This document shows positions 20,840-53,314 of a stretch of DNA of 64,000 bases, piece by piece. This DNA is from Patescibacteria group bacterium. Its GTDB lineage: Bacteria; Patescibacteriota; Microgenomatia; UBA8517. The notes below the pieces were generated by a model. The model made no database searches and had not been told where the DNA came from. It saw nothing but the letters and a program-made list of their open reading frames with translations. The translations under genes were made by a program, and so were the position numbers. Location of the stretch: contig DATDRP010000006.1 in assembly GCA_035291665.1 (NCBI GenBank), positions 9,786 through 73,785 of the forward strand, read 5' to 3'. How positions within the stretch are numbered: the first letter of the stretch is position 1; each line of letters starts with the position of its first letter.

Positions 20840-21433
20840 TTATTTATGCATTTCTTTCTGCAAAACTTTGATTTCTGATATTAGTTTTTTAGAAAACGAT
20901 TTGGGGTATTTTTTTAGTAGCTCCAACTCGCCTGCATTCCTATTTGTTTTGGACATACCCCTTTTGTGTTTATCCTGAAACGCTTGCCATTTTTTGTATC
21001 CGCTTTCAGTTAAGTGCATTGACCCTGTACACTTTTTGCTTTTGCAGAAACATCGATGAGGGCAGGGATTGCAATTCATTTTTGGGGGAAGCAGATAGGA
21101 AATGGTTAACTCACTACCTTTCCTGATATTTTTTAAAGCAAAAACAACGGTGTGGTTTTTGTATTTTATAATCCAGCAGTTTGGGGAGCAGGAGTGGTTA
21201 AGAAGGTGTACTCCGGATATTTTTAAGTCGGGGTAAATACCCAACTCATCGTTGTAATACATTAAATAAAGTTCTCTCTTTTCTTTGTCAAAATCGAAAT
21301 CTAATAGCTGCACTAATTTACCCACATAATCACCGATGAGTGCTCCCTGTCTAATTGGTTTTCTGGCAAAAACACCCCTTCCTTTATTCTTAGTCTTTCT
21401 GATTTTCCAGAAACTAGCAGGTATTAAAAACAT
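20840..21433 (-). CDS. SET-domain protein-lysine methyltransferase-like protein with Cys-rich post-SET
   Basis: GRGVFARKPIRQGALIGDYVGKL...NHSCSPNCWI...LKNIRKGSELTISY, then CNPCPHRCFCKSKKC. These are the canonical SET motifs (NHSC, ELTxxY). Confidence 0.75.
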   Translation of the reverse strand: MFLIPASFWKIRKTKNKGRGVFARKPIRQGALIGDYVGKLVQLLDFDFDKEKRELYLMYYNDELGIYPDLKISGVHLLNHSCSPNCWIIKYKNHTVVFALKNIRKGSELTISYLLPPKMNCNPCPHRCFCKSKKCTGSMHLTESGYKKWQAFQDKHKRGMSKTNRNAGELELLKKYPKSFSKKLISEIKVLQKEMHK

Positions 21434-32505: not shown

Positions 32506-33087
32506 ATGTCGTTTAAAAAGCGGATTTTTAACAATACAGATATCCAGGCTAAGGATTTTGGCAATGAGAGGTTTGTGAACTGTAAATTCAAAAATCTGAA
32601 CTTCCGTTTCACTAATTTTACCGATTGTCAGTTTGTAAATTGTGATTTTTCAGGCAGTGTTTTTGAAATAACAACATTTACTGACTGTCGGTTTCCGGAA
32701 ACGAATGTTTCAAACATCGACTTTGGTGATATTGACCTCAAGAAATGTGATTTTACGGATTCATATGCTAAAAATTGTGTTTTCCACAAACTTAAAGGAG
32801 GTAAATTCGGTGAACGTAAGAAATGCAACCTTAAAGATTCAAATTTTGACAACACCAAACTTGACGGTTCTGTTTTTGCATGGTGTGATCTGAATTCTGT
32901 GAGTTTTAAAAAATCAAATCTGACGGAGGCTGTTTTTGAAAATTGCGATCTTGAAAATGCAAATTTCATCGGAGCCGATTTAACTTCGTGCGGATTTCGG
33001 AAATGCTATATCAAAAATACAAATTTGGACATCGAAGGCTTCATCAAAGTAGGGAATAGCAGAGGCTTCGTTCTGATGGACGAATAA
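32506..33087 (+). CDS. pentapeptide repeat protein
   Basis: Consecutive A(D/N)LxF-type repeats: FVNCKFKNLNFRFTNFTDCQFVNCDFSGSVFEITTFTDCRF ... ANFIGADLTSCGFRKCYI. Confidence 0.8.
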   Translation: MSFKKRIFNNTDIQAKDFGNERFVNCKFKNLNFRFTNFTDCQFVNCDFSGSVFEITTFTDCRFPETNVSNIDFGDIDLKKCDFTDSYAKNCVFHKLKGGKFGERKKCNLKDSNFDNTKLDGSVFAWCDLNSVSFKKSNLTEAVFENCDLENANFIGADLTSCGFRKCYIKNTNLDIEGFIKVGNSRGFVLMDE

Positions 33088-38217: not shown

Positions 38218-38568
38218 TCAGCTGTTGCGTCTCAGGATGTATATCTCAGCGGTTATTGCTATTCCAGCAAGAAGAAAAAAATTAACCAAATGTCCAAGTT
38301 CAAAATAACGAAGTACCAAAAATATTAATAAAACAATCGCTCCCAATAGTCCTCTTCTAGTGTTGGCAAAAACGATAGATAGTGTAAAAAATATAGCAAA
38401 AAAAATATTTATAAAAAACAAAAAGATTGCCCAAGTAGCAAAAGGATCCACCCAGTAAATAATTGAAAAAACACCTAACCACAAAAGGAGGGTGACTATT
38501 AGCGTCGGGAGAAAGTTTTTCCTCAGCTTAACTTCCGTTTTACGGTGTTTGATCTTCCCGTTCATCAA
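38218..38568 (-). CDS. small membrane protein (116 aa)
   Basis: 3 TM with no motif recognised. Confidence 0.35.
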   Translation of the reverse strand: MMNGKIKHRKTEVKLRKNFLPTLIVTLLLWLGVFSIIYWVDPFATWAIFLFFINIFFAIFFTLSIVFANTRRGLLGAIVLLIFLVLRYFELGHLVNFFLLAGIAITAEIYILRRNS

Positions 38569-38677
38569 AATATACTCCTCTAACTTGAATTCACATTCTT
38601 ATGTTAGAGATTATATATACAAAATTCTATTTACAATAAGCAAATTGAAGTATTTTGAACGCTGTATAATATATCTA

Positions 38678-39634
38678 ATGGAAAATTACCTTTTAATAGC
38701 AATATTAATTGTGGGTTTTGGACTGGTTATTTATTTTATTAATAAAAAACTTACCGAACTTGCTGAAAAACAAAAACCCTCGAGTGACCTACTGGAGTAT
38801 CTGAGAAGTACAAATACACGTCTTGACCAGCAGGGTCAGGCATTCAACCAGAGGCTTGATAACGCTGCGAAAGTGATCGGCGATGTGCAGAAAAACATAG
38901 GCGAGATGAGTGAAATCGGCCGTGGCATGAAGGAGCTGCAGGAATTTTTGAAAAGCCCAAAACTTAGGGGAAATATCGGGGAGCAGGTTCTCAACGAACT
39001 ATTAACGCAAATGCTACCCAAAGCTTCGTTCAATCTTCAATACACTTTCAGGTCAGGTGATAAAGTTGACGCAGCAATAAAAACATCGGCAGGCATCATC
39101 CCAGTTGACTCTAAATTTCCAATGGAGAACTACAGAAAACAGGCGGCCAGTAAGAGTGACGAGGAACGATTACATGCACTACGGGATTTTGAAAGCGATG
39201 TCAAAAAACACGTTGACGATATTAGCAGGAAATATATCCTAACCAACGAGGGGACAATCGATTATGCTCTTATGTATGTCCCAAGCGAAGCGGTTTATTA
39301 TGAAATAGTAAACAATCCCAAGCTTTTTGAATATGCAGGAGGCAAACGCGTACTCCCCGTCTCCCCCACTACTTTTTATGCATATCTGAAAGCAATTTTA
39401 ATGAGCTTTGAAGGTCAAAAAATTGAAAGTCAGGCAAAAGAAATTTTGGCGAGTCTCCGGGCAGTCCAGAAAGACTATGAAAAAGTAAGCGGAAGTTTGG
39501 ATGTTTTACAAAAACATATGACGAATGCTTATAACATGATGGGAAATGTTGTGAATGTTTTTTCGCAACTGGGACAAAAAATATCTTCAGCCAGATCGCT
39601 TTCTCCTAGCAAAAAAGATGAGATAGAGGTTTGA
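38678..39634 (+). CDS. rmuC: DNA recombination protein RmuC
   Basis: N-terminal TM, long coiled coil, and the RmuC core (NIGEQVLNELLTQMLP...VDAAIKTSAGIIPVDSKFPMENY...LMYVPSEAVYYE). The start is set at Met 38678 (MENYLLIAIL) because the track ORF start at 38492 overlaps the upstream minus-strand gene. Confidence 0.8.
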   Translation: MENYLLIAILIVGFGLVIYFINKKLTELAEKQKPSSDLLEYLRSTNTRLDQQGQAFNQRLDNAAKVIGDVQKNIGEMSEIGRGMKELQEFLKSPKLRGNIGEQVLNELLTQMLPKASFNLQYTFRSGDKVDAAIKTSAGIIPVDSKFPMENYRKQAASKSDEERLHALRDFESDVKKHVDDISRKYILTNEGTIDYALMYVPSEAVYYEIVNNPKLFEYAGGKRVLPVSPTTFYAYLKAILMSFEGQKIESQAKEILASLRAVQKDYEKVSGSLDVLQKHMTNAYNMMGNVVNVFSQLGQKISSARSLSPSKKDEIEV

Positions 39635-39783
39635 GACCCATTGGATTTGACGTGTTCAACATTCTTCTTTAATCTATTAGATAGATTCAATATAGAATGT
39701 TTGGAATTATACTAATTGGGAATAGGAGTTTGTTTAGAAATTAGTAATTAGATATTAGAAATTTTCCGAAAGGAGGTGAGATT

Positions 39784-40350
39784 ATGCTATCAAAAGTAGT
39801 TGAAGAGATTTCAGATACAATTACGGCAGCAATTAAGGGAGCTGATGACATTTTAACTTCGCTTCGAACAGCAGTCAAAAATCAAGTTGGCGGTTCTTTG
39901 AAAGATGTTGGAGAACTAACAGGTACAACAATGGGTGTTGTTTCCGATACCGTTGCGGCGGCTCTTAAAAGCGCATCAACGATGGGAACTTCGGTTGTAG
40001 ACGCAACGAAACAGGCAGTAATGGGAGCGGTTAGTGCAGTTGCAGATGCGGGAGGAAGTGTTGTTGATGCTGTTAATACCTCAGTATCAGGAGCTGTAAA
40101 AGCTGCAGGTGATGTCGGAGGTGATGTTGGTAAAATAGCTGTATCAGCTGTAGAAGGAGCGATTGATTCTGTTGGAAAGCTTGGAAAAGACACATCTGAA
40201 GCAGCTGGAGCTGCAGTTATGTCTGCACTTAAAGCTGCGGAAGGAATCGGGGATGAATCAGCAAGGACTGTTCGTCAAGCATTAATGTCTGCAGCATCTC
40301 TTCCAAGGGATGTTGTTGAAAGAGTATTGAAGGGAAGCAAAGACGCGTAA
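39784..40350 (+). CDS. Ala/Gly/Val-rich tandem-repeat protein (about 22-residue VVDAxxxxVxGAVxAxxDxGGx units), unknown function
   Basis: 188 aa with AAGGAGGTGAG 5 nt upstream of ATG. Repeats read directly: VVSDTVAAALKSASTMGTS / VVDATKQAVMGAVSAVADAGGS / VVDAVNTSVSGAVKAAGDVGGD / VGKIAVSAVEGAIDSVGKLGKD. Confidence 0.55.
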   Translation: MLSKVVEEISDTITAAIKGADDILTSLRTAVKNQVGGSLKDVGELTGTTMGVVSDTVAAALKSASTMGTSVVDATKQAVMGAVSAVADAGGSVVDAVNTSVSGAVKAAGDVGGDVGKIAVSAVEGAIDSVGKLGKDTSEAAGAAVMSALKAAEGIGDESARTVRQALMSAASLPRDVVERVLKGSKDA

Positions 40351-40357
40351 ATTTAGA

Positions 40358-40771
40358 TTATATTTTAATCGTTTGGATTTGTTTAACGCTGATCCAGGCT
40401 GACATAGCGCCATATCCTTTTTTATTTATATTGAAAGGTTTAGTTTTTTGCGGAGACTTAAGATATATTAGTAAACAATATTTTGCGTTTCTTACCCTAT
40501 TGTAAACACTCTCATAATCAGTTATTGCAATTCCGTCAGAATGGCCGAACTTTGTCAGAATATTTTTGATTTCAATTGCGTTCAGGTTTTCAATTTCAAT
40601 AACTTTGGAAACTTTTGCTTTTGCTGAAATAGAACCTCCTGAATTTTTAAAGTAAATAGTGTCGCCCTTTTTTACTCTTCCCCAGGGAATTGATTTTCGT
40701 ACACTCCAGCGCGATTCGATTTTTTTCTCTCCGGAGATAATCTTGGGAATCATTCCCCATGATTTTTTCAT
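40358..40771 (-). CDS. ASCH-domain protein (RNA-binding PUA-like fold)
   Basis: MKKSWGMIPKIISGEKKIESRWS...KGDTIYF is the ASCH N-terminal signature. The start is set at Met 40771; the longer track N-terminus would be encoded by repeat-derived DNA. Confidence 0.5.
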   Translation of the reverse strand: MKKSWGMIPKIISGEKKIESRWSVRKSIPWGRVKKGDTIYFKNSGGSISAKAKVSKVIEIENLNAIEIKNILTKFGHSDGIAITDYESVYNRVRNAKYCLLIYLKSPQKTKPFNINKKGYGAMSAWISVKQIQTIKI

Positions 40772-40789
40772 AATTGCGACATGTGTAGT

Positions 40790-40980
40790 CATGAAGCAAT
40801 TATATGAAGCTCCACTGGCTGACGCCACTGGTAACATCTGCTCTAGCTTCGCCTGCCTACCGGCAAGGCAGGTTCATCCACTAGCTTATGGTTCGACAAC
40901 GCTTACCATCCTGAGTATGTCGAAGGATGCTCATGGTTTTATGCGAAGGAGGATGGAGGAGTGCTAAGTTAGAATGTAGT
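40790..40980. repeat. degenerate member of the palindromic element family in a divergent intergenic gap
   Basis: ccactgg...ccactgg, gcctgcctaccggcaaggcagg (compare gcctgccggcaggc at 39-52), catcctgagtatgtcgaaggatg (compare catcctcc...ggaggatg), and gaaggaggatggaggag. Confidence 0.45.
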
Positions 40981-41067
40981 AGGAAATGCTGAATGGGTTC
41001 TTTTTATTAAACTCACTCAGAGAAAGTGATAAGCTTATTATAGGAGTGATAACGCCTATAACTAAGT

Positions 41068-44000
41068 ATGGTTTGTTTAAAGCAATTGTATATAAATTAC
41101 CGACTCGATTCTAGAGAAAATAAAGTTGTCCAGCAAAAATTCCGTGTGAATTTACTTCTTTCTTTTATTTTCGCTTTTTTTATGTTCTTAGTTTACCCAA
41201 CTTCAACTTTAGCAACAAACTACTATGTGGATGCTACAAATGGTGATGACAATGATAACGGTACTTCAACCGATACTCCCTGGCAGACGATCAATAAAGT
41301 AAACATTTCGAGTTTCAGTGCAGGGGACCAGATTCTGTTTAAGAAAGGCGAAATATGGAGAGAACAATTGACGGTTCCTTCAAGCGGTACTGCCGGAAAT
41401 CCAATTGTCTTTGGGGCTTACAGTAGCGGGGTAAACCCGATTATTAATGGTTCAGACGTTGTATCTTCATGGACTGCAGACATTGCCAGTTATCAAACAA
41501 CTTTTGATATGGATGGATGGGGTTGCTGGGGTAACTACAGTACGGCTTCAGATGCAAGTGGGGTGACTTATAGGACTTCATTTCTTCAATCTGCTTTTTC
41601 CGGTTCTTCTATAAGAATTACTGTTAAAGCGGCAGCGGGTGGAAGCGTAACAATTGATAATTCTTCAGTGTGCATAGCAAATGGTGGGTGGAATGATTGC
41701 GACTCTACACCTACGAGAATTACATGGGATGGGGGAAATAATAGTGCGACAATTTCAGCAGGAGCTTCCAAAACGAGCGACCCAATTACTTTCTCTTGGA
41801 GCACCTCTAATATTAATGCTGTCAGTGTTTATGTTTCCTCTGGCAGTTTAGTTGGATATTATAGTACCGTTCCTGCTTATCTATATAGATATACCTACAC
41901 TGGGGATGTCGCTTTGAATCAGAATATGTTGGGTGATGAAAATCAGATAAATGATAGCGAGATTTTGAAAGTTGAAACATCTACAGGTTTAGCTAATGTT
42001 TGGAATGCGACGGTTGCAGATACACCAAATCAGGTTTTCAAAGACGGAGTGCTTGCCACAAAAGGAGCCTCCAAGGCCGCTTTAACACAAAGTCAATGGT
42101 ATGCTTCAGGGACAACTCTTTCTTATTATGAAAGTGCCGGTAATCCCGGCAGTCAGGCTTACGCGATAGAAGCTTCTACAAGAGATTATGGAATTTATTT
42201 CAACGGTCAAAATAAGATTACGGTAGATGGATTGACAGTAACAAAAGCCAATTTGTACGGGATAAATATTGGACACGATTCAAGCCACACCTTAGACAAC
42301 GCAATTGTTCAAAATTCACTCGTCCAATACAGTTATGACGCCGGTATTTTTTCTTGGGTCCCAACATCTTTAAACGGGTCTTTGGCAGCAACAATCCTGA
42401 ATAATGAAGTATCTTATAATGCGATCCAAGATGGAATAGACGGCGGAAACGCGCCTACTGGTATAGAAATACTCGGCTCTAACTCAACCGGACCTACGCT
42501 AGTTCAGGGAAATAATATCCACCACAACTATTGGGGAATGGAATTTGACCAGAATTCCGATCATTCGACTGCGCAATACAACAGTATTCACGATAATAAT
42601 AAGATGGGGATGAATATCGACAATTCGGATAACAACACGTTCCAATATAATCTGGTCTATAATCACCCTGTCAGTTGGGGGTTGAGAATATGGGATGCCG
42701 CTGCGAATGGGATGACGGGCAATGTTGTCTATAATAATGTCTTTTATGGCAATTCTATCGGCATCATTGTTGAGAACGAACAAACAAACCTGAAAATAAA
42801 AAATAATATTCTCCTTGCTAACACCGCCAACACAAGTACCAGCGAGATAACCCTTGAAAGTGGCCATACATATACCGGACTTGATATTGACTACAATTCT
42901 TATTATCGTGAATCCGGAACAACTTACTGGAAGTATGGGGCTACAAATTATTCTTTTACGGACTGGAAAACTAATTCAGGTCAAGATGCTAATTCCGTAA
43001 ATTCTGACCCGTTATTTACCGACGCTACCGGATATGATTTTACATTACAATCCGTTTCTCCCGTCATTAATAGTGGAACTGATGTCAGTTTAACAACTGA
43101 TTATGCAGGAACAATCGTACCACAGGGTACTACACCTGACATTGGAGCATATGAATTTTCACTGCCCTCTAGCGCTTCTTCTTTGTTACAGTATCAGTCT
43201 GATGGAACAAGTTCGATTTCCACCGGTGGAAAACTCGGGAGTGGCTCAACCGTTGTCCTTAAATCTAGCATGTCATCTGCCAATAGTTCAGACTCGTTAA
43301 CACCGCAGTTTGAGGTCAGACCGGTTGGAACTGCTTTTTCCAATAGTGCTACCCATTTAGGCAATGCAATTTCATATTCAGGAACTTCTGTTATAGGAAA
43401 CGTCACTGTTTCCGGACTTGGAGCAGGAAATTATCATTGGCAAGCTAGAGTAGATAATCCCGCCGGCCAATCTTCCTGGGTATCATACGGAGGAAATTCG
43501 GAAGATGCAACCGATTTTTCGATTGATTATTCAATTGCTTCTCCAGCACCTTGTAACGATTCTGCTCCCACATCTGCACCCTGGCTTTACGCGGCTACTG
43601 TAAAAGGAAAGGATGCTATTTTACTTCAGTTTACTCAGGCTAAAGACCCAGTTAGTGAATATGTTGTGGAATACGGGGAAGAGTCAGGAAAATATGTATA
43701 CGCCATGGCAGACATAGGCGGAAAAGGCACTACTTCATACACTGTAGGTTATTTACAACCTAACAAAATTTTTTATTTCAGAGTTCGAGCAGGGAACGGG
43801 TGTGCAACAGGTCTTTGGTCAAACGAGATATCAGCTAAAACTCTTTCCGGTTCTTCCACTGCATCTAATGATGAAGGATTAGAAACTGAAATTATTGAAA
43901 CTGAAATTAGGGAAAGAGAAGTAGAGGAAAGTAACGAAGAAATTAAAAAAGAAGAGCAACCGGAAGTTTTGGGGGTTGATGTGAGATTAAAAGTTGTTAA

Positions 44001-44337
44001 CGAAGAAAAAGAACCTATAAAAGGAGCGAAAGTAACACTATATTCAGAACCTAGGGAAGTAACAACAAACAAAGACGGCATTTCATTATTTGAAAATGTA
44101 GAACCAGGAGACCATAAAGTTGTCATTGCCTACAACGGTCAAACCGGAGAACAGAATATAAACATCCAAGATGATTCAGGTATCGAGGAAGTAGATTTTA
44201 CAATTCAGCTTAACACAACCTCCCCTTTTAAAGATTCTAAGGTAATTGCGGTGGTATCTTTCTTGGTTCTGGTGGTAATAGTATTGGTGATACTGTTTGC
44301 AAAAAAATCTTCAAATAAAAAACCTGCCAAGTTATAA
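41068..44337 (+). CDS. large cell-surface protein: signal peptide, right-handed parallel beta-helix (PbH1) repeats, FN3-like domain, acidic linker, CarboxypepD_reg-like domain, C-terminal TM anchor
   Basis: 1089 aa. PbH1-type repeats (NNIHHNYWGMEFDQNSDHSTAQYNSIHDNNKMGMNIDNSDNNTFQYNLVYNH), an FN3-like domain (YVVEYGEESGKYVYAMADIGGKGTTSYTVGYLQPNKIFYFRVRAGN), VTLYSEPREVTTNKDGISLFENVEPGDHKVV, and terminal VIAVVSFLVLVVIVLVILFAKK. Confidence 0.6.
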   Translation: MVCLKQLYINYRLDSRENKVVQQKFRVNLLLSFIFAFFMFLVYPTSTLATNYYVDATNGDDNDNGTSTDTPWQTINKVNISSFSAGDQILFKKGEIWREQLTVPSSGTAGNPIVFGAYSSGVNPIINGSDVVSSWTADIASYQTTFDMDGWGCWGNYSTASDASGVTYRTSFLQSAFSGSSIRITVKAAAGGSVTIDNSSVCIANGGWNDCDSTPTRITWDGGNNSATISAGASKTSDPITFSWSTSNINAVSVYVSSGSLVGYYSTVPAYLYRYTYTGDVALNQNMLGDENQINDSEILKVETSTGLANVWNATVADTPNQVFKDGVLATKGASKAALTQSQWYASGTTLSYYESAGNPGSQAYAIEASTRDYGIYFNGQNKITVDGLTVTKANLYGINIGHDSSHTLDNAIVQNSLVQYSYDAGIFSWVPTSLNGSLAATILNNEVSYNAIQDGIDGGNAPTGIEILGSNSTGPTLVQGNNIHHNYWGMEFDQNSDHSTAQYNSIHDNNKMGMNIDNSDNNTFQYNLVYNHPVSWGLRIWDAAANGMTGNVVYNNVFYGNSIGIIVENEQTNLKIKNNILLANTANTSTSEITLESGHTYTGLDIDYNSYYRESGTTYWKYGATNYSFTDWKTNSGQDANSVNSDPLFTDATGYDFTLQSVSPVINSGTDVSLTTDYAGTIVPQGTTPDIGAYEFSLPSSASSLLQYQSDGTSSISTGGKLGSGSTVVLKSSMSSANSSDSLTPQFEVRPVGTAFSNSATHLGNAISYSGTSVIGNVTVSGLGAGNYHWQARVDNPAGQSSWVSYGGNSEDATDFSIDYSIASPAPCNDSAPTSAPWLYAATVKGKDAILLQFTQAKDPVSEYVVEYGEESGKYVYAMADIGGKGTTSYTVGYLQPNKIFYFRVRAGNGCATGLWSNEISAKTLSGSSTASNDEGLETEIIETEIREREVEESNEEIKKEEQPEVLGVDVRLKVVNEEKEPIKGAKVTLYSEPREVTTNKDGISLFENVEPGDHKVVIAYNGQTGEQNINIQDDSGIEEVDFTIQLNTTSPFKDSKVIAVVSFLVLVVIVLVILFAKKSSNKKPAKL

Positions 44338-44404
44338 GATATAAGGGGATATTCCCCCAACAGGAGAATACTCTAACACGATCCATAAATATATTATATC
44401 TTTA

Positions 44405-47400
44405 ATGTTAGAATTGGTGACGATGGATGGTGAGAAAAAATTAAACAAAGAACAACTTGAAGCAATAAAGTATAATCCGCCGGCCGGCGGTGGACCTCTT
44501 CTTATAATTGCAGGAGCAGGGACAGGAAAGACCACTGTTGTTACTGAACGAATAAAATACCTTATCCAAAAAAAGCTGGCAAAATCTTCGGAAATCTTAG
44601 CTCTCACCTTTACTGAAAAAGCAAGCGCCGAAATGCAGGAAAGGGTTGATGTTGCTCTCCCCTATGGATATATACAAATGTGGATTTCAACTTTCCATTC
44701 TTTTTGCGACCGGATACTTCGAAGAGAAGCTCTCCATATCGGACTTAATCCCGCATACAAATTGAATACCCAAGCCGAGTCAATAGCGTTTGTCAGAAAA
44801 AATTTATTTAACCCGCCTGCCGGACGGAATAGGTTTGAGCTTAATTATTTCCGCCCATTGGGGAATCCAAACAAATTTGTTGAAGGGATGTTAACCCATT
44901 TTTCAAGACTCCAAGATGAAGACATAAACCCAAGCGAATATCTCGCTTGGGTAAAAGCACAAAGTAAAAAGAGATCCCAAAAAAAGGTTCATGCCTCACA
45001 AGGCATGAAGTCTTTACGGGATGACTCAGCTGGTTTTGAAAGTTTACCATCTGAGTCAAAAGAGATTGAAAAATGGGAAGAGTTGGCAAATGCTTATAAG
45101 GTTTATGAGAAATTAAAAGCTGAAGAAGGCGTGATGGATTTTGGTGATTTGATTACCAATACATTGAAACTTTTTCGTTCCCGACCTAACGTTTTGGCGG
45201 AATACAAAAAGCAATTTAAATATATTCTTGTTGATGAGTTCCAGGATACTAATATTGCTCAATACGAACTTCTGAAACTTCTTGCTCCACCGTCAAAAAC
45301 CGCAAATCTCAATGTTGTGGGAGATGACTCACAATCAATTTACAAGTTCAGAGGTGCTGCAATTTCAAATATTTTATATTTTCAAAAGGACTATAAGAAT
45401 GCCAAAACTATAGTTCTTACGCAAAATTACCGTTCGACGCAAAAGATCCTTGATGCCTCATACAAGCTTATTCAATTTAATAACCCCGACACTCTGGAAG
45501 CGAGACTTGGGATCGATAAAAACTTAAAAAGCGCCAAAAAAAGTATAGGGGAAGATGTGATTTTTATTCATAAAGACAGGGTTGAAGACGAAGCGGAAGG
45601 CGTGGTGAGGGAAATTCAGAAGCTTACTACCCACAACCCACCACCCACAACTTATAACTATAAGGATGTTGCCATTCTTGTTCGGGCCAACAACCATTCT
45701 GATCCGTTTATTCGTGCGCTTCAAAGATATGGGATCCCCTATCAATTTTTGGGTCCGGGAAAGCTTTTCAAACAACCGGAGATAGTTGATCTTATTGCTT
45801 ACTTAAAAATTCTTTACGATTTTGAAGATAGTGTTTCGATGTATCGAATTTTATCAAATGATTATTTTGAGATAAGCGACCGGGATCTGATTAAATTAGC
45901 AAATTATGCAAGAAAGAAAAATATATCGCTTTTTGAAGCATCGGAACAGATTGCAGATGTCTATGTATCGGAAGCTTCAAAAGAGAAAATACAAGGACTT
46001 ATAGACCTTATTAGTAGAAGCCAGAAGCAAATTAAGAAATCGTCCGCCGGACAACTGCTTTACGATTTTTTAGAAAAAACCGGCATGCTGCAGGGGCTTT
46101 TGTTACCGGACGATGTCGAAGCGGATAAAAAGGCAAAAAATATTTCCAAGTTATTTGATAAGTTGAAAACCTATGAGGTTGAACACGAAGATGCATCCGT
46201 TAAGGCTATTGTTGATTGGATCGATCTTGCAAGTGAATTAGGGGAATCTCCTTTGGCAGCAGATTCCGATTGGACAGAAATTAATGCTGTCAACATCTTA
46301 ACCATTCATTCAGCAAAAGGTCTTGAGTTTCCGGTTGTTTTTTTGGTGAATCTTGTATCACAGAGATTCCCGACAATTGAAAGAAGAGAGCAGATCCCGA
46401 TTCCGGAAGGTTTGATAAAGGAATTTTTGCCGGTTGGAGATTACCATACCCAGGAAGAAAGGAGACTTTTTTATGTCGGGATGACGCGGGCAAAAGAAAA
46501 ACTGTATTTGACGGCCTCCAATTATTACGGGGAGGGAAAGCGTGAGAAAAAAATATCGCCTTTTGTTTTTGAAGCGCTTGGAGACAGCGTTCTGAAAAGC
46601 GAGCGGTCCAAAGATGATAGTCAGCAGCTAACTTTTTTGGACTACAAACCACAAGAATCAAGCTCACTACCCACTACCCACTACCCACAACCCATTCATA
46701 TCGACTATCTTTCATATTCTCAGATCGAAACTTTCCGTATTTGCCCCCTCCATTTCAAATTAAGTTATATTTACAGACTTCCAACTCCCCCCACCTCATC
46801 ACAAAGCTTCGGCAACACATTTCATCAAACTATGAAAAGTTTTTACGAAAAAATTAAAGAAGGAGCAAAACCTTCGAAGTCTTTGATGGAAAAAACTCTG
46901 ACTGAGCACTGGATTAATGAGGGCTATTTGAGTAAGTCTCACGAAAAAAAATCGTACGAAAAAGCCGTATCTTTCTTACATTTTTATCTTTCGAATTATT
47001 TCAATCCGAAAAATCTTCCGGAAGCCCTGGAACAGCCGTTCTTGATACAGCTTAAAGACCAATTCGAAGGTAAATATCAATTCATAAAAATTGGCGGCAA
47101 AATCGACAGGGTAAATGTTGCTGGCGATTCATTGGAAATAATTGATTATAAAACGGGCGCAAATCCAATTACTCAAAAAGAAGCCGATACGAATTTACAG
47201 CTTTCAATCTATGCTCTTGCTGCGTCACAAATTCCGGAACTTCCTTTCGGAAAGAACCCGAAAGATGTAAAACTATCGTTAATGTATTTTGATACTCCGC
47301 AGATTGTGTCAACAACAAGATCAAGTGCTCAGTTACAGGATGCAATCAGGCAGATCTTTAGTTACAAAAAGCAGATCGAAGAGTCCGATTTCAAATGCTC

Positions 47401-47458
47401 AGGAAACATTCTTTGCGGGAACTGCGAATACAAACTCTTCTGTAAAACCGATGAGTGA
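44405..47458 (+). CDS. UvrD/PcrA-type SF1 helicase fused to a C-terminal PD-(D/E)XK nuclease with a Cys cluster (Cas4/AddB-like)
   Basis: Helicase motifs: GAGTGKT (I), LVDEFQDTN (II), GDDSQSIYKFRGA (III), TIHSAKGLEFPVVFLV (V/VI). C-terminus: ETFRICPLHF..., GKIDRVNVAGDSLEIIDYKTG (D...E.K core) and CSGNILCGNCEYKLFC (Fe-S type Cys cluster). Confidence 0.8.
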   Translation: MLELVTMDGEKKLNKEQLEAIKYNPPAGGGPLLIIAGAGTGKTTVVTERIKYLIQKKLAKSSEILALTFTEKASAEMQERVDVALPYGYIQMWISTFHSFCDRILRREALHIGLNPAYKLNTQAESIAFVRKNLFNPPAGRNRFELNYFRPLGNPNKFVEGMLTHFSRLQDEDINPSEYLAWVKAQSKKRSQKKVHASQGMKSLRDDSAGFESLPSESKEIEKWEELANAYKVYEKLKAEEGVMDFGDLITNTLKLFRSRPNVLAEYKKQFKYILVDEFQDTNIAQYELLKLLAPPSKTANLNVVGDDSQSIYKFRGAAISNILYFQKDYKNAKTIVLTQNYRSTQKILDASYKLIQFNNPDTLEARLGIDKNLKSAKKSIGEDVIFIHKDRVEDEAEGVVREIQKLTTHNPPPTTYNYKDVAILVRANNHSDPFIRALQRYGIPYQFLGPGKLFKQPEIVDLIAYLKILYDFEDSVSMYRILSNDYFEISDRDLIKLANYARKKNISLFEASEQIADVYVSEASKEKIQGLIDLISRSQKQIKKSSAGQLLYDFLEKTGMLQGLLLPDDVEADKKAKNISKLFDKLKTYEVEHEDASVKAIVDWIDLASELGESPLAADSDWTEINAVNILTIHSAKGLEFPVVFLVNLVSQRFPTIERREQIPIPEGLIKEFLPVGDYHTQEERRLFYVGMTRAKEKLYLTASNYYGEGKREKKISPFVFEALGDSVLKSERSKDDSQQLTFLDYKPQESSSLPTTHYPQPIHIDYLSYSQIETFRICPLHFKLSYIYRLPTPPTSSQSFGNTFHQTMKSFYEKIKEGAKPSKSLMEKTLTEHWINEGYLSKSHEKKSYEKAVSFLHFYLSNYFNPKNLPEALEQPFLIQLKDQFEGKYQFIKIGGKIDRVNVAGDSLEIIDYKTGANPITQKEADTNLQLSIYALAASQIPELPFGKNPKDVKLSLMYFDTPQIVSTTRSSAQLQDAIRQIFSYKKQIEESDFKCSGNILCGNCEYKLFCKTDE

Positions 47459-47473
47459 TTTTGTAACTATGAA

Positions 47474-48007
47474 TTAAGGAGTAGGAGTCGGTGTGGGAAT
47501 ATTGTACCAATCACCGGGATCTATATTTTCAGCTGTTTGGCCGGAAGAAACCGAAACAACGATTGGTTCATGAGACTTGCAGGTAGCTTTTAGTCCGCAA
47601 GTTACAAATTCGGAAAAGTATGCTTTGTAGGAATCTCCCGGTCTTTTGGAAAAAACAAGATAACTGCCGACCGGAACTTCGAGCTTGTAACCAACCCGGT
47701 AAGTATATTCCGGTGAGTTTATTCTTTCCTGCGTACAATATTCGTTTTCGGTTAAGGCATTTTGAGCACACACTTCCACGTCCTCGGGAATTACTTCTGA
47801 AGGAAAACTCATTGATCCGGTTATAAAACCCGTAGTTGGGGAAATGCTTTGTGTCGGTGTCGCTTTAACGCCTTCGGTTGGCGTTACTTCGGATGTATCA
47901 ATTACTTCGGAAACGCTCCTTTTGGAATTTTTACCAAGCAAGTATGCACCAATCCCGGTTCCGATCATTATCAGTACTAACAAGATGACAACAAGAAACT
48001 TTTTCAT
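47474..48007 (-). CDS. secreted/anchored Pro-Thr-rich protein, hypothetical
   Basis: An N-terminal signal anchor MKKFLVVILLVLIMIGTGIGAYLL, a PT-rich linker, and the C-terminus ...NIPTPTPTP. Confidence 0.4.
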   Translation of the reverse strand: MKKFLVVILLVLIMIGTGIGAYLLGKNSKRSVSEVIDTSEVTPTEGVKATPTQSISPTTGFITGSMSFPSEVIPEDVEVCAQNALTENEYCTQERINSPEYTYRVGYKLEVPVGSYLVFSKRPGDSYKAYFSEFVTCGLKATCKSHEPIVVSVSSGQTAENIDPGDWYNIPTPTPTP

Positions 48008-48112
48008 TTTCGTATTAACTATTTACATTAATTAGTGGCGGCTTGTCAAATATTTTTCTTTGCGACGAATATTGAAAGAATATATTTGTAATCAATGAAG
48101 ACCTCTAATTTT

Positions 48113-49177
48113 TTAAAATTTAGATTTAGAGAAGCTGAGTTTTGTTATTCCGCGAAGGATTATCCAACGGAGCTTTTCGGCAGAACGGTAAATTTTATAG
48201 ATTGGTTTATTTACAACAAAATCCCAAGTCCCTAAAAATTCTATAACTTGGGGATTATAGCCTTCTTTGAATTTTGTGAAACCCTTGCCCTCTTCCCTTC
48301 CCCATAGGTCAAAGATATTCAGTTTTAGATTTCGTCCCAAGCGGATTGCCTCCCACATTATCAGGTTATTTGCCATAAGAGATTTGAATTTGGGATTGGA
48401 AGTACTTGCACCGTATGGGTAATAAAGGAAATCTTTGTAAACAAACAGTATCCATGTGGTGATTATTTCACCTTTATATACGGCTTTTATGAGCCTTGCT
48501 ATCGGCTTTTCTCTTTTTTCTATTTTCTTTTCTCTAAGTTCTTTCCACATCAAACGGTGGTATTTTTCAGTGTGGGCAAAAAAACCCTGACGTTCAACGG
48601 TTTCCCGGGTTAATTCAAGATATTTTTCAAATGCTTCATCGGAGTTATCCTCGGAAACTTTAACTCCTTTTTTCTGTGCAAGCCGGATATTATATCTGGT
48701 TTTACCGGAGAAACTTTTTAGAAGTTCCTCTTCCGATTTGGCTAAATCAATCCAAAAAGTGGTGGGTGTAAAAAGTGTCTTTCCCCGTACACATCCGTTT
48801 TTCTCCAGGAGTTTGATTAATTTACTTTTTTGCTTACTGCTTACAGCATACTGCATACCGCTGTCGCTGAAAGCGATATTAGGTTCGAGTTTGATAAAAA
48901 TAAGATTATATATTGTGGCAATTTTCTTAAGTTCATCGAGCATTTCTTGGCTGGGCACTGGTCCTTTGATGAACATTCCGATTTTATTTGGAAATGGCCA
49001 CCGGCTCGCCAGAGCCTTTGGCTCGGGGAGAATTTTATGAAGGGTGAGATAGCCGAATTTGGTTTTTACAACTTCATTACCCCATGCTTTTCTAAAACTT
49101 GCCCATTCTGGTGATTGAAGAGGATGGGGAATGCCCAAAGCTTTTTTAGGTGTATTCATGAATATATAATACAACAA
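48113..49177 (-). CDS. FemAB-family aminoacyltransferase (peptidoglycan interpeptide bridge formation, FemX-like)
   Basis: N-terminal HPLQSPEWASFRKAWG (compare FLQSWEWG of FemX), two GNAT-like halves, ...MWEAIRLGRNLKLNIFDLWG. Confidence 0.65.
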   Translation of the reverse strand: MLYYIFMNTPKKALGIPHPLQSPEWASFRKAWGNEVVKTKFGYLTLHKILPEPKALASRWPFPNKIGMFIKGPVPSQEMLDELKKIATIYNLIFIKLEPNIAFSDSGMQYAVSSKQKSKLIKLLEKNGCVRGKTLFTPTTFWIDLAKSEEELLKSFSGKTRYNIRLAQKKGVKVSEDNSDEAFEKYLELTRETVERQGFFAHTEKYHRLMWKELREKKIEKREKPIARLIKAVYKGEIITTWILFVYKDFLYYPYGASTSNPKFKSLMANNLIMWEAIRLGRNLKLNIFDLWGREEGKGFTKFKEGYNPQVIEFLGTWDFVVNKPIYKIYRSAEKLRWIILRGITKLSFSKSKF

Positions 49178-49186
49178 CAGAGGCTG

Positions 49187-51157
49187 TCAGAAGTTCAGAT
49201 CATTAAAACCGTCGTCATCCAGAATGTTTTTATCCAAAAAATCCTCATCCTCATTGTCACCATCAGAATAAGAATTCAAATATCCATTAATTGATTCCAG
49301 CAGTTCCTCCGGGATATCGATGATAAATCGGCTTGGAGGATTTGATGATTTTTGTCCGAAATACAGCCTTTTTCCGGCGTAGGTCAGATACAAAAGCTCT
49401 TTTGCCCGGGTGATTCCGACGTAGCAAAGCCTTCGTTCTTCTTCAAGCTGGGTGATGTCGAACAAAGACCGGGAATGGGGAAAAAGTCCTTCTTCCATTC
49501 CGATGATAAACACGATCTTAAATTCCAATCCCTTAGCAGCATGAAGAGTCATTAGGGTTACTTTATTATTGGGCGGTGGGTTGTTTAAGGATTGTGGCTT
49601 ACCGTTTTCATCCTGCTTGCCCCCCTTGATATTATCGAAGGTGGGTCCGGCTTCAACTAAGGCAACATTTTCCAAAAATTCATTTATTTCCGGAAACTCC
49701 ATAGCAACAGAACGAAGTTCCTTGATGTTCTCCAGCCGGGCAAGATTCTCTTCCGTCTCGTTTTCGTATTTTTGCAAGTAATTCACTTTTTGCAAAACCG
49801 AGTCCATCATCTCGAGAGTCGTTGTTGAGTCAAGAAAATTCTTAGGAAGACTTTCCGAAAATTCCTTAAACTTTTCCAGTCTTCGGATTCCGAGTTTGAG
49901 GAGTCTGTTTTTTGAAACTTTGTCTTTCGGATTAACAAGTAGCCTAAGATATGCAAGGACGTCCTTAATTTCAGCTCTGGAGTAAAATCTTACCCCCCCC
50001 ACCAAAACGTACGGAATTCCGGCGTGAAGGAGTGCTTCTTCTACAACACGGGATTGAGCGTTAGTGCGGTATAAGACAGCCACATCGCTGTAGTCAACAG
50101 TATTTTGACTACGATCTACGGCAGTAGTCTGTAGACTGTTAGCTGTAAGCTGTTCTATTTGTTCAACTACATAATTTGCCTCATCGAGTTCACTTGATGC
50201 CCTGTAAATCCGGATCTTGTTGCCATAACCTTTGTCAGTCCAAAGTGATAGTACCGGGTGCGAAGTGTTTTTTTTGATGACGGCATTCGCAGCGTCAAGT
50301 ATAGTTTGGGTTGAACGGTAGTTTTGTTCAAGATTAATAACTTTGATTTTGGGGAAATCCTTCATCAGGTAATTAATATTCCGGTAATCAGCACCTCTCC
50401 AGCTATAAATTGATTGTGACGCGTCGCCAACAGCGGTCAGATTATCCCTTCCTCCAACAAGAAGCTTGGTCAAGAGGTATTGAATTTTGTTTGTATCCTG
50501 CCACTCATCAACAAAAATATAGGAAAGAATATTCTGCCATTTACGAAGAGTTGGCTCGTCCGATTCCAAAAGTCTTACTCCCTTTAGAAGAAGATCGTCA
50601 AAATCCAGAGCATTGGCATCATTGAGGGCTTTTTCGTATTCCAAATAAATTTTGAAAATCTTATCTGCATGCTCTCCTTTGGCAACTTCTGAATACTGGA
50701 GGGGGCTCATCATCATGGTTTTAGCATCCGATATTTGTGATGCAATTGCTCCGGGGGAAAAATATTCCTTGGGAAGGTTCAGTTCATCAAGGATGTCTTT
50801 TATAACATCTTTTTGGTCCGTGTCGTCGTAGATTAAGAAATCTCTCCCGATTCCGATTTTTGCTCCGTCAATTCGAAGGAGCCTTGCACAGAAAGAGTGG
50901 AAAGTACCGGCAAATGTCGGGCTTTCGGATATCAGTTTCGTGACGCGCTCTTTCATTTCACCTGCAGCTTTGTTTGTGAATGTCAGAAGAAGTACGTTTT
51001 CCGGGCGGGCTTTCTTTTGAGCTATTGTATAGGCAACTTTGTGGGTGAGAACTTTTGTTTTTCCCGATCCGGCTCCAGCCAGTACCAGAAGAGAACCACC
51101 CTCATATGTGACTGCTTCTTTTTGGTCTTTGTTCAGATCTTTTAGAATGTCCGTCAT
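49187..51157 (-). CDS. ATP-dependent DNA helicase UvrD/PcrA family
   Basis: LNKDQKEAVTYEGGSLLVLAGAGSGKTKVLTHKVAY, FVDEWQDTN, GDASQSIYSWRGA, LMTLHAAKGLEFKIVFIIG, VGITRAKELLYLT. Confidence 0.85.
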   Translation of the reverse strand: MTDILKDLNKDQKEAVTYEGGSLLVLAGAGSGKTKVLTHKVAYTIAQKKARPENVLLLTFTNKAAGEMKERVTKLISESPTFAGTFHSFCARLLRIDGAKIGIGRDFLIYDDTDQKDVIKDILDELNLPKEYFSPGAIASQISDAKTMMMSPLQYSEVAKGEHADKIFKIYLEYEKALNDANALDFDDLLLKGVRLLESDEPTLRKWQNILSYIFVDEWQDTNKIQYLLTKLLVGGRDNLTAVGDASQSIYSWRGADYRNINYLMKDFPKIKVINLEQNYRSTQTILDAANAVIKKNTSHPVLSLWTDKGYGNKIRIYRASSELDEANYVVEQIEQLTANSLQTTAVDRSQNTVDYSDVAVLYRTNAQSRVVEEALLHAGIPYVLVGGVRFYSRAEIKDVLAYLRLLVNPKDKVSKNRLLKLGIRRLEKFKEFSESLPKNFLDSTTTLEMMDSVLQKVNYLQKYENETEENLARLENIKELRSVAMEFPEINEFLENVALVEAGPTFDNIKGGKQDENGKPQSLNNPPPNNKVTLMTLHAAKGLEFKIVFIIGMEEGLFPHSRSLFDITQLEEERRLCYVGITRAKELLYLTYAGKRLYFGQKSSNPPSRFIIDIPEELLESINGYLNSYSDGDNEDEDFLDKNILDDDGFNDLNF

Positions 51158-51286
51158 AATTGATCGTGAAATATGCGTACGAAAATCATTTTAGGACAAT
51201 AGGCAATCAATTACTAGCGAAGTAAAATTGGGGATAAAGTCAGGATGAAAATTCGTAATTATAACCAAAACGGCAGGAATGAAGAG

Positions 51287-53314
51287 TTAGCGTACTTTGT
51301 ACACCTTCGTTTGGTTTGATTCAAATTCCAAAGTTGCAATCGGCAGGAACTTTTGTTCATCCAGATTCGGGAATTTTTCTCTTTCGAAAGATCCAACAAT
51401 AACATACCCGACCTTATATTTTTTCAGAAGTGCTTGGGCAATCTTCGGATCATTTGTTGTATAGATGAGAGTGATATCTCCGACTCTTTTTTGAGGGAAC
51501 TCGGAAGACCCCCGCCATAGCCATTCGTGGACAAACCATCCGGAAATTGTCGGATTTCCAGTATATGAAGAAATAACATTATAGTCCGTATAGCTGTCGC
51601 CCGGCGCTTCCAGGATATTTGCTTTGATATTATTATTTTTGAAATAATTTACGGCGTCATATACCCCGGGAAATTGATTTTTCAGCCAAAGGGTTCCGTC
51701 CAATCCCTGGTAGAATTTCAGACCGTTATAGTATGACTTTATTGCGACTTGTGCGTATGAAACGATTGAATAAAGAACGATAACCCAAAAGATTAGAAAA
51801 AACTTTTTTATGTATGATTCTTTCGCCAAAGATAGTTGTCTGGCAATAATAAATCCTGCTGATAGGTAAAACATAACATACGCCTGATAAGTAAGCTTAA
51901 ACATCGTATTGGCACGGTAATGGGTGGCGGCGTAAATATCTTTTAGATAAATTATTTCCGGAAGGGCAATCAGAGTCCACGATGAGAGCAGCAAACCCAA
52001 AATAAATATATCTGTTACGGTTACTTTTTCCCGCAGCTTCAAAATAACAGTTACGAAAATTGTTGTGAGAATTGCAGGAAAACCCCAAAGAATGATTAAT
52101 TGCCAGAAGGGAGTATGGGAATGGACAAGATTAATCCCCTGAGCAATCGATTCAAAATTAATGATAAAAAGGAGTGCGCTGAAAAATAGTATTGAACCGA
52201 TAATTACAAAATCCCTTATTATAAAAAATACAGCTTTAAGTTTAAATTTATTTTTAATGAAATGGATCAGCATCAGGACAAATCCTGTTGTTAACAAATA
52301 GTTACCCACATCCCAAGTACTGGTCATAAACATTATCCCGAGTAAGAATCCCAGACAGGCAAGTTTTTTGAAGTGATTCTTCCTGTTAAGGATTTGATCT
52401 GCAACCAAAAACAAAATTGATAGATACAAAAGTACGTTAGGTAAGTTCATTAAATGTCCGTGAAGGTCTGAAACGACAAATGAATAAATAGGAAACTCAT
52501 GGATTGTTTTATCGTTGGTGTCGGGATTATACCCTATGAATCGCGTTGCATCCGGGTACCAATATTTATCAGCACCGTTTTTCAAAACATAAAAAGGTGT
52601 ATGGAAATTTCCGGCAAAAGTCACAAGAATGGCAGACAGCAGTCCTGCAACAATAAACGTTCGTGTTCTTCCGGCGGGTAGAGAAAATTTAGTAATTGTT
52701 GAAACGAGTGAGAAAACTCCCGAAAGGGAAAGACCCATGATGGTTGCAAGCATCAGGTTGTATGTAATGGCCGAAGGGATTTGCGTAAGCATGGTAAGAA
52801 GTGCAGTGGTGAAATGTCCGAACCAGTAATAATTAATAACCTCTCCGACTGCCCACATATCCGTAGGTGGAAGGAATTTTGTCGTTAACGCAGAGTTAAC
52901 AAATCCGAAATCCATGAACTTTTCCAAACCTCTTATATCCGGTTGATGGGCGCGGACGTATGCCAAAAAAAACAATCCGGCAGTAAAAAGCGCTTCACTA
53001 ATTAACACATATTTTGAGGATTTTCGAACTGTTTTAATTAATTGTTTTTGGTCCTTGGTAAGTATGTAAAGATTTAAAGCTATTGCAACAACCAAAAAAC
53101 CCAAAAGTGAAACTCTTGAAAAACTTAAGACCTTCAATGTCGAAGTTACAAATGTCAGATATGAAAGAAAAAGTATAGAAACCGTTCTTGAAAAAGCCCA
53201 TCCGTAATCCGTAAATTTCTTAAATATCCGGTATGTCAGAGGAAAAAAAATAAGACCAATAATAAGGGTGTATAACCACCAATTAAATGTAATAATAAGG
53301 TCTTGTATGTACAT
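51287..53314 (-). CDS. large polytopic membrane protein (675 aa) with a C-terminal extracytoplasmic domain; possible GT-C/DUF2298-like glycosyltransferase
   Basis: More than 14 TM helices with no catalytic motif recognised. The C-terminal soluble region is about 150 aa. Confidence 0.35.
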   Translation of the reverse strand: MYIQDLIITFNWWLYTLIIGLIFFPLTYRIFKKFTDYGWAFSRTVSILFLSYLTFVTSTLKVLSFSRVSLLGFLVVAIALNLYILTKDQKQLIKTVRKSSKYVLISEALFTAGLFFLAYVRAHQPDIRGLEKFMDFGFVNSALTTKFLPPTDMWAVGEVINYYWFGHFTTALLTMLTQIPSAITYNLMLATIMGLSLSGVFSLVSTITKFSLPAGRTRTFIVAGLLSAILVTFAGNFHTPFYVLKNGADKYWYPDATRFIGYNPDTNDKTIHEFPIYSFVVSDLHGHLMNLPNVLLYLSILFLVADQILNRKNHFKKLACLGFLLGIMFMTSTWDVGNYLLTTGFVLMLIHFIKNKFKLKAVFFIIRDFVIIGSILFFSALLFIINFESIAQGINLVHSHTPFWQLIILWGFPAILTTIFVTVILKLREKVTVTDIFILGLLLSSWTLIALPEIIYLKDIYAATHYRANTMFKLTYQAYVMFYLSAGFIIARQLSLAKESYIKKFFLIFWVIVLYSIVSYAQVAIKSYYNGLKFYQGLDGTLWLKNQFPGVYDAVNYFKNNNIKANILEAPGDSYTDYNVISSYTGNPTISGWFVHEWLWRGSSEFPQKRVGDITLIYTTNDPKIAQALLKKYKVGYVIVGSFEREKFPNLDEQKFLPIATLEFESNQTKVYKVR

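Follow-up and report, generated by a model that had tools for sequence, protein, structure and literature searches.

The 64-kb stretch of DNA analyzed here (64,000 nucleotides; hereafter, the window) belongs to contig DATDRP010000006.1 of the Patescibacteria group bacterium assembly GCA_035291665.1. At positions 44405..47458 of its plus strand lies a gene whose open reading frame (ORF), translation, and Pfam matches define a 1017-amino-acid (aa) fusion of a UvrD-type helicase with a Cas4/AdnA-like iron-sulfur (Fe-S) nuclease. This fusion is a single-copy core gene of the Woesebacteria-type genome, a member of the Patescibacteria or candidate phyla radiation (CPR), and is embedded in a conserved housekeeping synteny that runs through the genes for MetRS, RmuC, the fusion itself, FemAB, and PcrA. 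Its closest sequence relatives, the best 120 in the database, are 59-71% identical to it and share its architecture, and those among them that are named are Candidatus Woesebacteria, Microgenomates, or Patescibacteria, that is, CPR bacteria.

The N-terminal portion, residues 13-706 (44441..46522, plus strand), is a superfamily 1A (SF1A) helicase core recognized by Pfam, by its match to PcrA 1pjr, and by motif alignment. It consists of UvrD-helicase (PF00580; residues 13-331; E 1.2e-74) and UvrD_C (PF13361; residues 336-706; E 2.9e-60), and its SF1 motif set is complete and intact, with Walker A GAGTGKT at residue 37, motif II DEFQD at 277, motif III GDDSQSIYKFRGA at 306, motif IV QNYRS at 340, motif V HSAKGLE at 635, and motif VI VGMTRA at 691. 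The initial annotation, made from the DNA alone, had described this ORF as carrying all SF1 motifs followed by a RecB-family nuclease core, and both the Pfam search and the motif check bear that out. Among PDB sequences, the helicase half scores highest against PcrA/UvrD 1pjr (308 bits; E 1.3e-90), followed by AdnB (135 bits), AddA (114 bits), and RecB (48 bits). Alignment with full-length homologs, 117 of them close and 55 diverse, shows the helicase motifs and the nuclease catalytic residues to be invariant or nearly so. The pawl position of motif III is occupied by Phe315, versus the base-stacking Trp of UvrD, PcrA, and AdnB; the same position is Phe in 117 of 118 sequences of the close set, whereas 35 sequences of the diverse set have Phe there and 20 have Trp. 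Since the W325F variant of AdnB retains 90% of the wild-type resection velocity (PMC8789073), Phe315 is compatible with a coupled motor.

The C-terminal portion, residues 769-1014 (46709..47446, plus strand), is a PF12705 PD-(D/E)XK nuclease domain, identified by Pfam (PDDEXK_1; E 1.4e-34; the whole profile covered, 2-247 of 247), by a PDB profile search, and by Foldseek with an AlphaFold2 model. Its nuclease residues are H807, E876, D901 (in GKIDR), D914 and K916 (in IIDYKTG), and Q932 and Y936 (in QLSIY), of which D901, D914, and K916 are invariant in the homolog alignments. The metal ligands of AdnA, His833, Asp920, and Asp934, together with Lys936 (PMC8789073), match H807, D901, D914, and K916 of the fusion, all of them invariant. 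The protein has six cysteines in total, and four are invariant or nearly so in both homolog sets. One is Cys780 (codon 46742..46744, plus strand; in RICPLHF), which lies upstream of the nuclease core at the canonical position of the fourth Fe-S ligand and is found in 118/118 close and 56/56 diverse sequences. The other three are the conserved C-terminal ligands C1004-x2-C1007-x5-C1013 (47414..47443, plus strand), which align with CANCPVRSSC of AdnA. The initial annotation had placed all the ligands in a C-terminal cluster spaced Cx4Cx2Cx5C. The cluster is present, but its spacing was off by one, the real pattern being Cx5Cx2Cx5C (C998-x5-C1004-x2-C1007-x5-C1013), and its first member, Cys998, is an extra residue limited to the Woesebacteria-type clade, the canonical fourth ligand being Cys780. 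The spacing between C1004 and C1007 ranges from 2 to 4 residues within that clade. Loss of the cysteines in orthologs, named in the initial annotation as a finding that would refute its proposal, was not seen, since the four ligands are retained across the 117 close and 55 diverse homologs.

A search of the nuclease profile against all PDB sequences ranked AdnA first (E 2e-13), aligned through CxxCx5C, followed by AdnB (8e-11), the Cas4-family PD-(D/E)XK nuclease 9iab (8e-8), AddB (4e-6), Cas4 SSO0001 (2e-5), type I-C Cas4, and Exo5. The AlphaFold2 model of the nuclease domain (predicted local distance difference test [pLDDT], 95; predicted TM score [pTM], 0.90) also has AdnA as its top PDB match in Foldseek (TM 0.71), and AddB, AddA, Cas4, Dna2, RecB, MGME1, and Exo5 come after it. 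The comparison with AddB, Cas4, and Dna2 suggested in the initial annotation, made here by profile and by fold, ranks AdnA above AdnB, AddB, Cas4, Dna2, and RecB. The model of the full-length fusion (pLDDT 89; pTM 0.81) contains a disordered linker at residues 747-760, and its motor part fits AdnB with a TM score of 0.57 and a root mean square deviation (RMSD) of 4.6 Å.

This architecture has already been described, and by architecture and residues we assign the protein to the known UvrD-Cas4-like (PF12705) family, which has thousands of members. Like the window protein, members of that family have an N-terminal UvrD-like SF1 helicase, a C-terminal PF12705 nuclease, and four cysteines. The UvrD-Cas4-like fusion forms the largest branch of PF12705, is found in many bacteria and mesophilic archaea, and has monophyletic helicase domains (Hudaiberdiev et al. 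2017, PMC5704561). Its genes lie beside type III restriction-modification (R-M) or Dcm/Vsr genes or, often, stand alone in surroundings that are not conserved, an ancillary role in unwinding and cleavage has been predicted for it, and most bacteria that have it also encode RecB (PMC5704561). These published contexts differ from that of the window fusion, which consists of housekeeping genes and a recurrent rmuC. Fusions of this kind also occur in Candidatus Edwardsbacteria (L086/L087) and in an Omp85-encoding diderm (L091), and most carriers encode RecB; the idea of a minimal machine for a reduced genome is not supported in the form proposed.

Other known enzymes share parts of this design. 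ZomB, from ICESp23FST81, an element of Streptococcus pneumoniae that is both integrative and conjugative (ICE), has been purified as a single polypeptide; its ATPase is stimulated by single-stranded DNA, and it needs both ATP and Mg to degrade linear duplex DNA (PMC9453066). It resembles the window fusion in architecture, with Cas4-like nuclease domain(s) following a UvrD-like helicase in one chain, but it has two Cas4-like domains, is encoded by a mobile element, and influences the transcription of ply. Dna2 and bacterial Bad likewise combine an Fe-S RecB-fold nuclease and an SF1 helicase in one chain, and Dna2 is among the fold matches; however, their nuclease is N-terminal and their helicase is SF1B (5'->3') (PMC7430649), whereas the fusion has the reverse order and an SF1A (3'->5') motor.

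The nearest solved relatives of both halves are the subunits of AdnAB, each of which, like the fusion, consists of a UvrD-like motor and a C-terminal RecB-like nuclease: the Fe-S nuclease of AdnA is closest to the fusion nuclease, and the AdnB motor fits the helicase half. In AdnAB, the AdnB motor leads by tracking 3'->5' and the motor-like domain of AdnA follows, while the Fe-S subdomain of AdnA is positioned at the fork and the nuclease of AdnA cleaves the 5' strand (PMC8789073). AdnAB, however, is a heterodimer of two adjacent paralogs, whereas one gene encodes both the intact motor and the Fe-S nuclease of the fusion, and the likeness of its nuclease domain to AdnA is no more than a resemblance. 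AddAB is similar to the fusion in its SF1A helicase and RecB-fold nuclease and in the AddB-type C...CxxCx5C iron staple, and the fold of the fusion matches both AddB and AddA. The AddA nuclease has no Fe-S cluster and the AddB helicase is inactive (e.g., PMC3321194); the fusion unites the two active halves that are divided between AddA and AddB and has no addB partner gene. On the corresponding NCBIfam models, the fusion scores 226 bits with addA TIGR02785 (cutoff, 707.65) and 175 with addA TIGR02784 (860.75), 22 with addB TIGR02786 (486.5) in a protein whose helicase motifs are intact, 191 with recB TIGR00609 (696), and 17.7 with cas4 TIGR00372 (65). It is thus not an AddA, an AddB, a RecB, or, being fused to a helicase, a stand-alone Cas4 of ~200 aa. 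The single-polypeptide helicase-nuclease of the initial annotation is upheld by the intact motor and nuclease and by conserved cysteine ligands in the style of AddB, Cas4, and AdnA.

To place the gene in its wider context, related loci were sought with a nuclease alignment of 10 sequences in one genome per species. The scan confirmed 488 loci, and context was counted in the best 80 of them, each from a different assembly, of which 78 have a full-length fusion. ORFs were called in all loci and matched to the window proteins, with 20 kb covered per relative. The informatively named records among the best 80 are Woese-, Gottesman-, Levy-, Roizman-, and Shapirobacteria, Saccharimonadales, Nomura-, and Parcubacteria, all of them Patescibacteria. 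Several records named "uncultured Gammaproteobacteria bacterium" (e.g., L006, L009, L015, and L062) share the MetRS, rmuC, fusion, FemAB, and PcrA synteny and, since this gene order is of the Patescibacteria type, are probably mislabeled.

No AddB-, RecC-, or AdnA-like partner was found in the window or within 10 kb of the fusion in the 78 related genomes, in agreement with the initial annotation, which had noted none in the window, and no recC/recD-like ORF is present in the window. The position where addB or adnA would sit is taken by a 1089-aa ORF (41068..44337, plus strand) that stops 68 bp before the fusion gene. AddB identity was ruled out for this ORF, which encodes by Pfam a beta-helix/fn3/CarboxypepD_reg surface protein with a C-terminal membrane anchor; besides it and the fusion, there are no ORFs longer than 700 aa in the 64-kb window. 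Each of the 78 loci has one fusion gene, and near it there is neither a second helicase-nuclease nor a recurrent large unassigned ORF. These data bear on the possibility that the fusion is one subunit of a conventional two-subunit enzyme of the AddAB/AdnAB type with an unlinked partner gene. Its kinship with AdnB in the motor and AdnA in the nuclease would fit such an enzyme, our view of this genome is limited to 64 kb, and a divergent paralog could escape a survey that kept the best 80 of 488 loci. On the other hand, addAB and adnAB genes are normally adjacent, no partner lies within 10 kb in the 78 loci, and the best 80 loci come from 80 different assemblies. The Fe-S-bearing subunit of AddAB and AdnAB has a degenerate or dispensable motor, unlike the Fe-S-bearing fusion protein, whose motor is fully conserved, and the addA, addB, and recB scores fall far under their cutoffs. 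We therefore disfavor a heterodimer with an unlinked partner and regard it as very unlikely.

The most consistent neighbor of the fusion is rmuC, encoding a membrane-anchored PD-(D/E)XK nuclease-like protein (38678..39634, plus strand; PF02646, E 2.8e-55). Its ORF as called spans 38492..39634 (plus strand), but the true start is probably Met63 (38678), which would give a protein composed of a transmembrane helix, a coiled coil, and the RmuC domain. In 68 of the 78 related loci, rmuC is upstream of the fusion on the same strand, with a median gap of 630 bp and with a gap of at most 100 bp or an overlap in 20 of the 68. The initial annotation had noted the second UvrD/PcrA nearby and did not include rmuC; of the 56 related loci with sufficient flanking sequence, 35 have a PcrA-like gene downstream of the fusion, a less consistent association that is kept in only part of the group and looks like inherited gene order. 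The RmuC proteins have a hydrophobic N-terminal segment in all cases (68/68), and E102, D131, and D144-x-K146 are conserved in the 67 locus orthologs and that of the window. In a distant relative (L088/L089; nuclease 32% identical), rmuC lies downstream of the fusion among genes for an S1 protein, IF-2, RuvB, and ClpB, and in L090 it overlaps the start of the fusion by 4 bp in yet another neighborhood. The pairing is thus found in at least three different contexts in Patescibacteria, and these differing arrangements suggest that the linkage is more than inherited gene order within one class. It is not mentioned in the Cas4 phylogenomics paper (PMC5704561) and is the only element of this system that we did not find in the literature searched.

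In the window itself, rmuC and the fusion are separated by a three-gene block (39784..44337) made up of a 188-aa ORF (plus strand), an ASCH-like ORF (40358..40837, minus strand), and the surface-protein gene. This arrangement is found only on contigs with an identical fusion protein, and the block is a lineage-specific insertion, with rmuC abutting or overlapping the fusion in relatives. Clustering of the intervening ORFs in search of a third component between rmuC and the fusion yielded none; the recurrent insertions are unrelated, namely an oppositely oriented FNR-like gene and a gene for a small, secreted, cupredoxin-like protein. A promoter and terminator scan of 38300..51400 gave results at or close to the shuffle background, a level uninformative as to operon structure.

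One alternative is a role in defense. The two genes could form an anti-phage or anti-plasmid module in which invading linear DNA is broken down by the motor-nuclease, with RmuC as a membrane-tethered effector, as in Shield. Indeed, most UvrD-Cas4-like fusions lie near type III R-M or Dcm/Vsr genes, and defense-related roles have been proposed for them (PMC5704561); the RmuC-domain protein ShdA degrades DNA in vitro and confers phage defense (PMC10270631); ZomB is carried by an ICE (PMC9453066); and the PADLOC models for a reverse transcriptase (RT)-associated helicase and an RT-associated RmuC are both matched here. However, the PADLOC matches are generic to SF1 helicases: plain PcrA scores higher than the fusion on the same models, and the same holds for the GajB models that the fusion matches, with no GajA-like gene as a partner, so that the locus is not a Gabija system. 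Moreover, the fusion is present in single copy in a housekeeping block (MetRS, FemAB, PcrA, and glycosyltransferases) across Microgenomates and other Patescibacteria instead of being patchily spread in variable islands, no methyltransferase, restriction, or other defense genes are adjacent to it in the window, and the authors of the Shield study explicitly separate housekeeping RmuC from ShdA (PMC10270631). Given the core, syntenic, single-copy context and the purely generic PADLOC matches, a defense module seems to us improbable.

Another possibility is that RmuC and the fusion process DNA taken up from the environment or a host, for nucleotide salvage or transformation, with RmuC nicking or cutting it and the fusion degrading or trimming it. 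CPR bacteria are missing many genes for nucleotide biosynthesis and are believed to depend on DNA uptake, RmuC is membrane anchored in all 68 sequences and has conserved nuclease residues, and the fusion is similar to ATP-dependent exonucleases acting on linear DNA. Against this, the evidence is wholly circumstantial, no competence genes (comEC, pilus genes, or dprA) were seen in the window or the sampled flanks, and the fusion family is found in non-CPR bacteria that lack rmuC next to it. A role in DNA uptake is, in our estimate, highly unlikely.

Instead, we favor, with moderate confidence, the reading that the fusion is a catalytically competent single-chain ATP-dependent helicase-nuclease that serves a housekeeping function, has no partner subunit, and in Patescibacteria probably acts with RmuC. 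We infer its enzymatic activity, the strand it cuts, its oligomeric state, its cooperation with RmuC, and its cellular role by setting known enzymes beside the architecture, residue conservation, fold, lack of an adjacent partner, and rmuC linkage described above. The UvrD/PcrA-type SF1A motor would load either at a DNA end or onto a single-stranded 3' tail and translocate 3'->5', opening the duplex, and the C-terminal RecB-fold nuclease, with a predicted four-cysteine Fe-S module equivalent to those of AdnA and AddB, would cut one strand of the opened duplex. The analogy with AdnA and AddB points to the displaced 5' strand as the most likely target and to an Fe-S subdomain that acts at the fork. 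In this, the protein would work as a monomer or homo-oligomer, requiring no paralogous partner of the AddB, RecC, or AdnA type, and in Patescibacteria probably together with membrane-anchored RmuC, the product of a gene that usually adjoins that of the fusion or is coupled to it in translation. Its most likely role would be a housekeeping one, in which it processes DNA ends and the intermediates of recombination.

Several observations weigh against this reading. Binding of an Fe-S cluster by the nuclease is predicted from its sequence. In the full-length model, no solved helicase-nuclease subunit superposes rigidly on both halves (RMSD, 16-33 Å; ~30 Å for AddA and RecB and ~16-17 Å for AdnA and AddB), so that the strand cut and a "wedge" role of the Fe-S module stay analogies. 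Unrelated genes, some of them encoded on the other strand, come between rmuC and the fusion in about two-thirds of the loci, so that inherited gene order among related genomes may account for part of the association. Outside CPR, the fusions of Candidatus Edwardsbacteria and the Omp85-encoding diderm occur without rmuC. A partner may also be encoded elsewhere in the genome, of which 64 kb were covered here, as against 20 kb in each relative. Finally, Hudaiberdiev et al. prefer an ancillary or defense-linked role for the family as a whole (PMC5704561). A bolder version, in which RmuC and the often translationally coupled single-chain fusion are the only double-strand-end machine of Patescibacteria, replacing RecBCD, AddAB, and AdnAB and tethering resection or the processing of imported DNA to the membrane, is conceivable but doubtful; our search for literature on the RecBCD/AddAB content of CPR/Patescibacteria genomes found nothing usable.

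The genes downstream of the fusion are as the initial annotation had them, a second UvrD/PcrA on the opposite strand with a PT-rich protein and FemAB in between, as confirmed by ORFs and Pfam. The first (47474..48007, minus strand) is a 177-aa ORF with an N-terminal hydrophobic segment, a PT-rich (TPTPTP) tail, and no family match, and it is outside the helicase-nuclease system. The second (48113..49177, minus strand; PF02388, E 1.1e-31) encodes a FemAB-family peptidyltransferase, a syntenic neighbor of the fusion that is kept in many related loci and is unrelated to it in function. The third (49187..51157, minus strand) encodes the stand-alone PcrA/UvrD helicase of 656 aa, which keeps the motif III Trp, matches PF00580 (9.5e-84) and PF13361 (1.3e-66) in Pfam, and has no extra domains. 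It scores 684 bits on TIGR01073, short of the equivalog cutoff of 911, as expected of a divergent CPR ortholog; at the level of domains, it is clearly an ordinary PcrA/UvrD. The remainder of the window is ordinary small-genome housekeeping and includes genes for GroEL, MetRS, glycosyl- and mannosyltransferases, an ABC-F ATPase, and an HhH-GPD glycosylase. It also encodes a SET-domain protein (20840..21433, minus strand; PF00856, E 1e-18) and a pentapeptide-repeat protein (32506..33087, plus strand); SET domains are uncommon in bacteria.

Other features were noted in the relatives. Inteins (PF14890/Hint) split some orthologs of the fusion (P0002, P0031, and P0118; ~1340 aa), and one is also found in the neighboring PcrA of a Microgenomates genome (992 aa; L002, 14656..17634, minus strand). 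A diversity-generating-retroelement-like pair (bAvd and RVT_1) lies ~7 kb upstream of the fusion in a Microgenomates genome (L002/L003, 1906..3238). Four metagenomic proteins of 814-1297 aa (P0128, P0172, P0138, and P0186) consist of 3-5 tandem PF12705 Cas4-like domains alone with no helicase, an unusual architecture.

The fusion protein is routinely annotated as ATP-dependent helicase or PcrA, and its identification here is a useful annotation and no surprise. The pairing with rmuC provides a modest but concrete and testable lead on RmuC. Ever since this widespread protein was connected with inversions at short inverted repeats, its role in housekeeping has lacked a definition. It is a membrane-anchored PD-(D/E)XK protein of which ShdA is a co-opted homolog (PMC10270631). 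If the CPR fusion really resects ends alone, it would offer a compact and tractable model of helicase-nuclease coupling in one chain, compared to the two or three subunits of AddAB, AdnAB, and RecBCD, and single-chain resection would help explain recombinational repair in bacteria with genomes of ~1 Mb.

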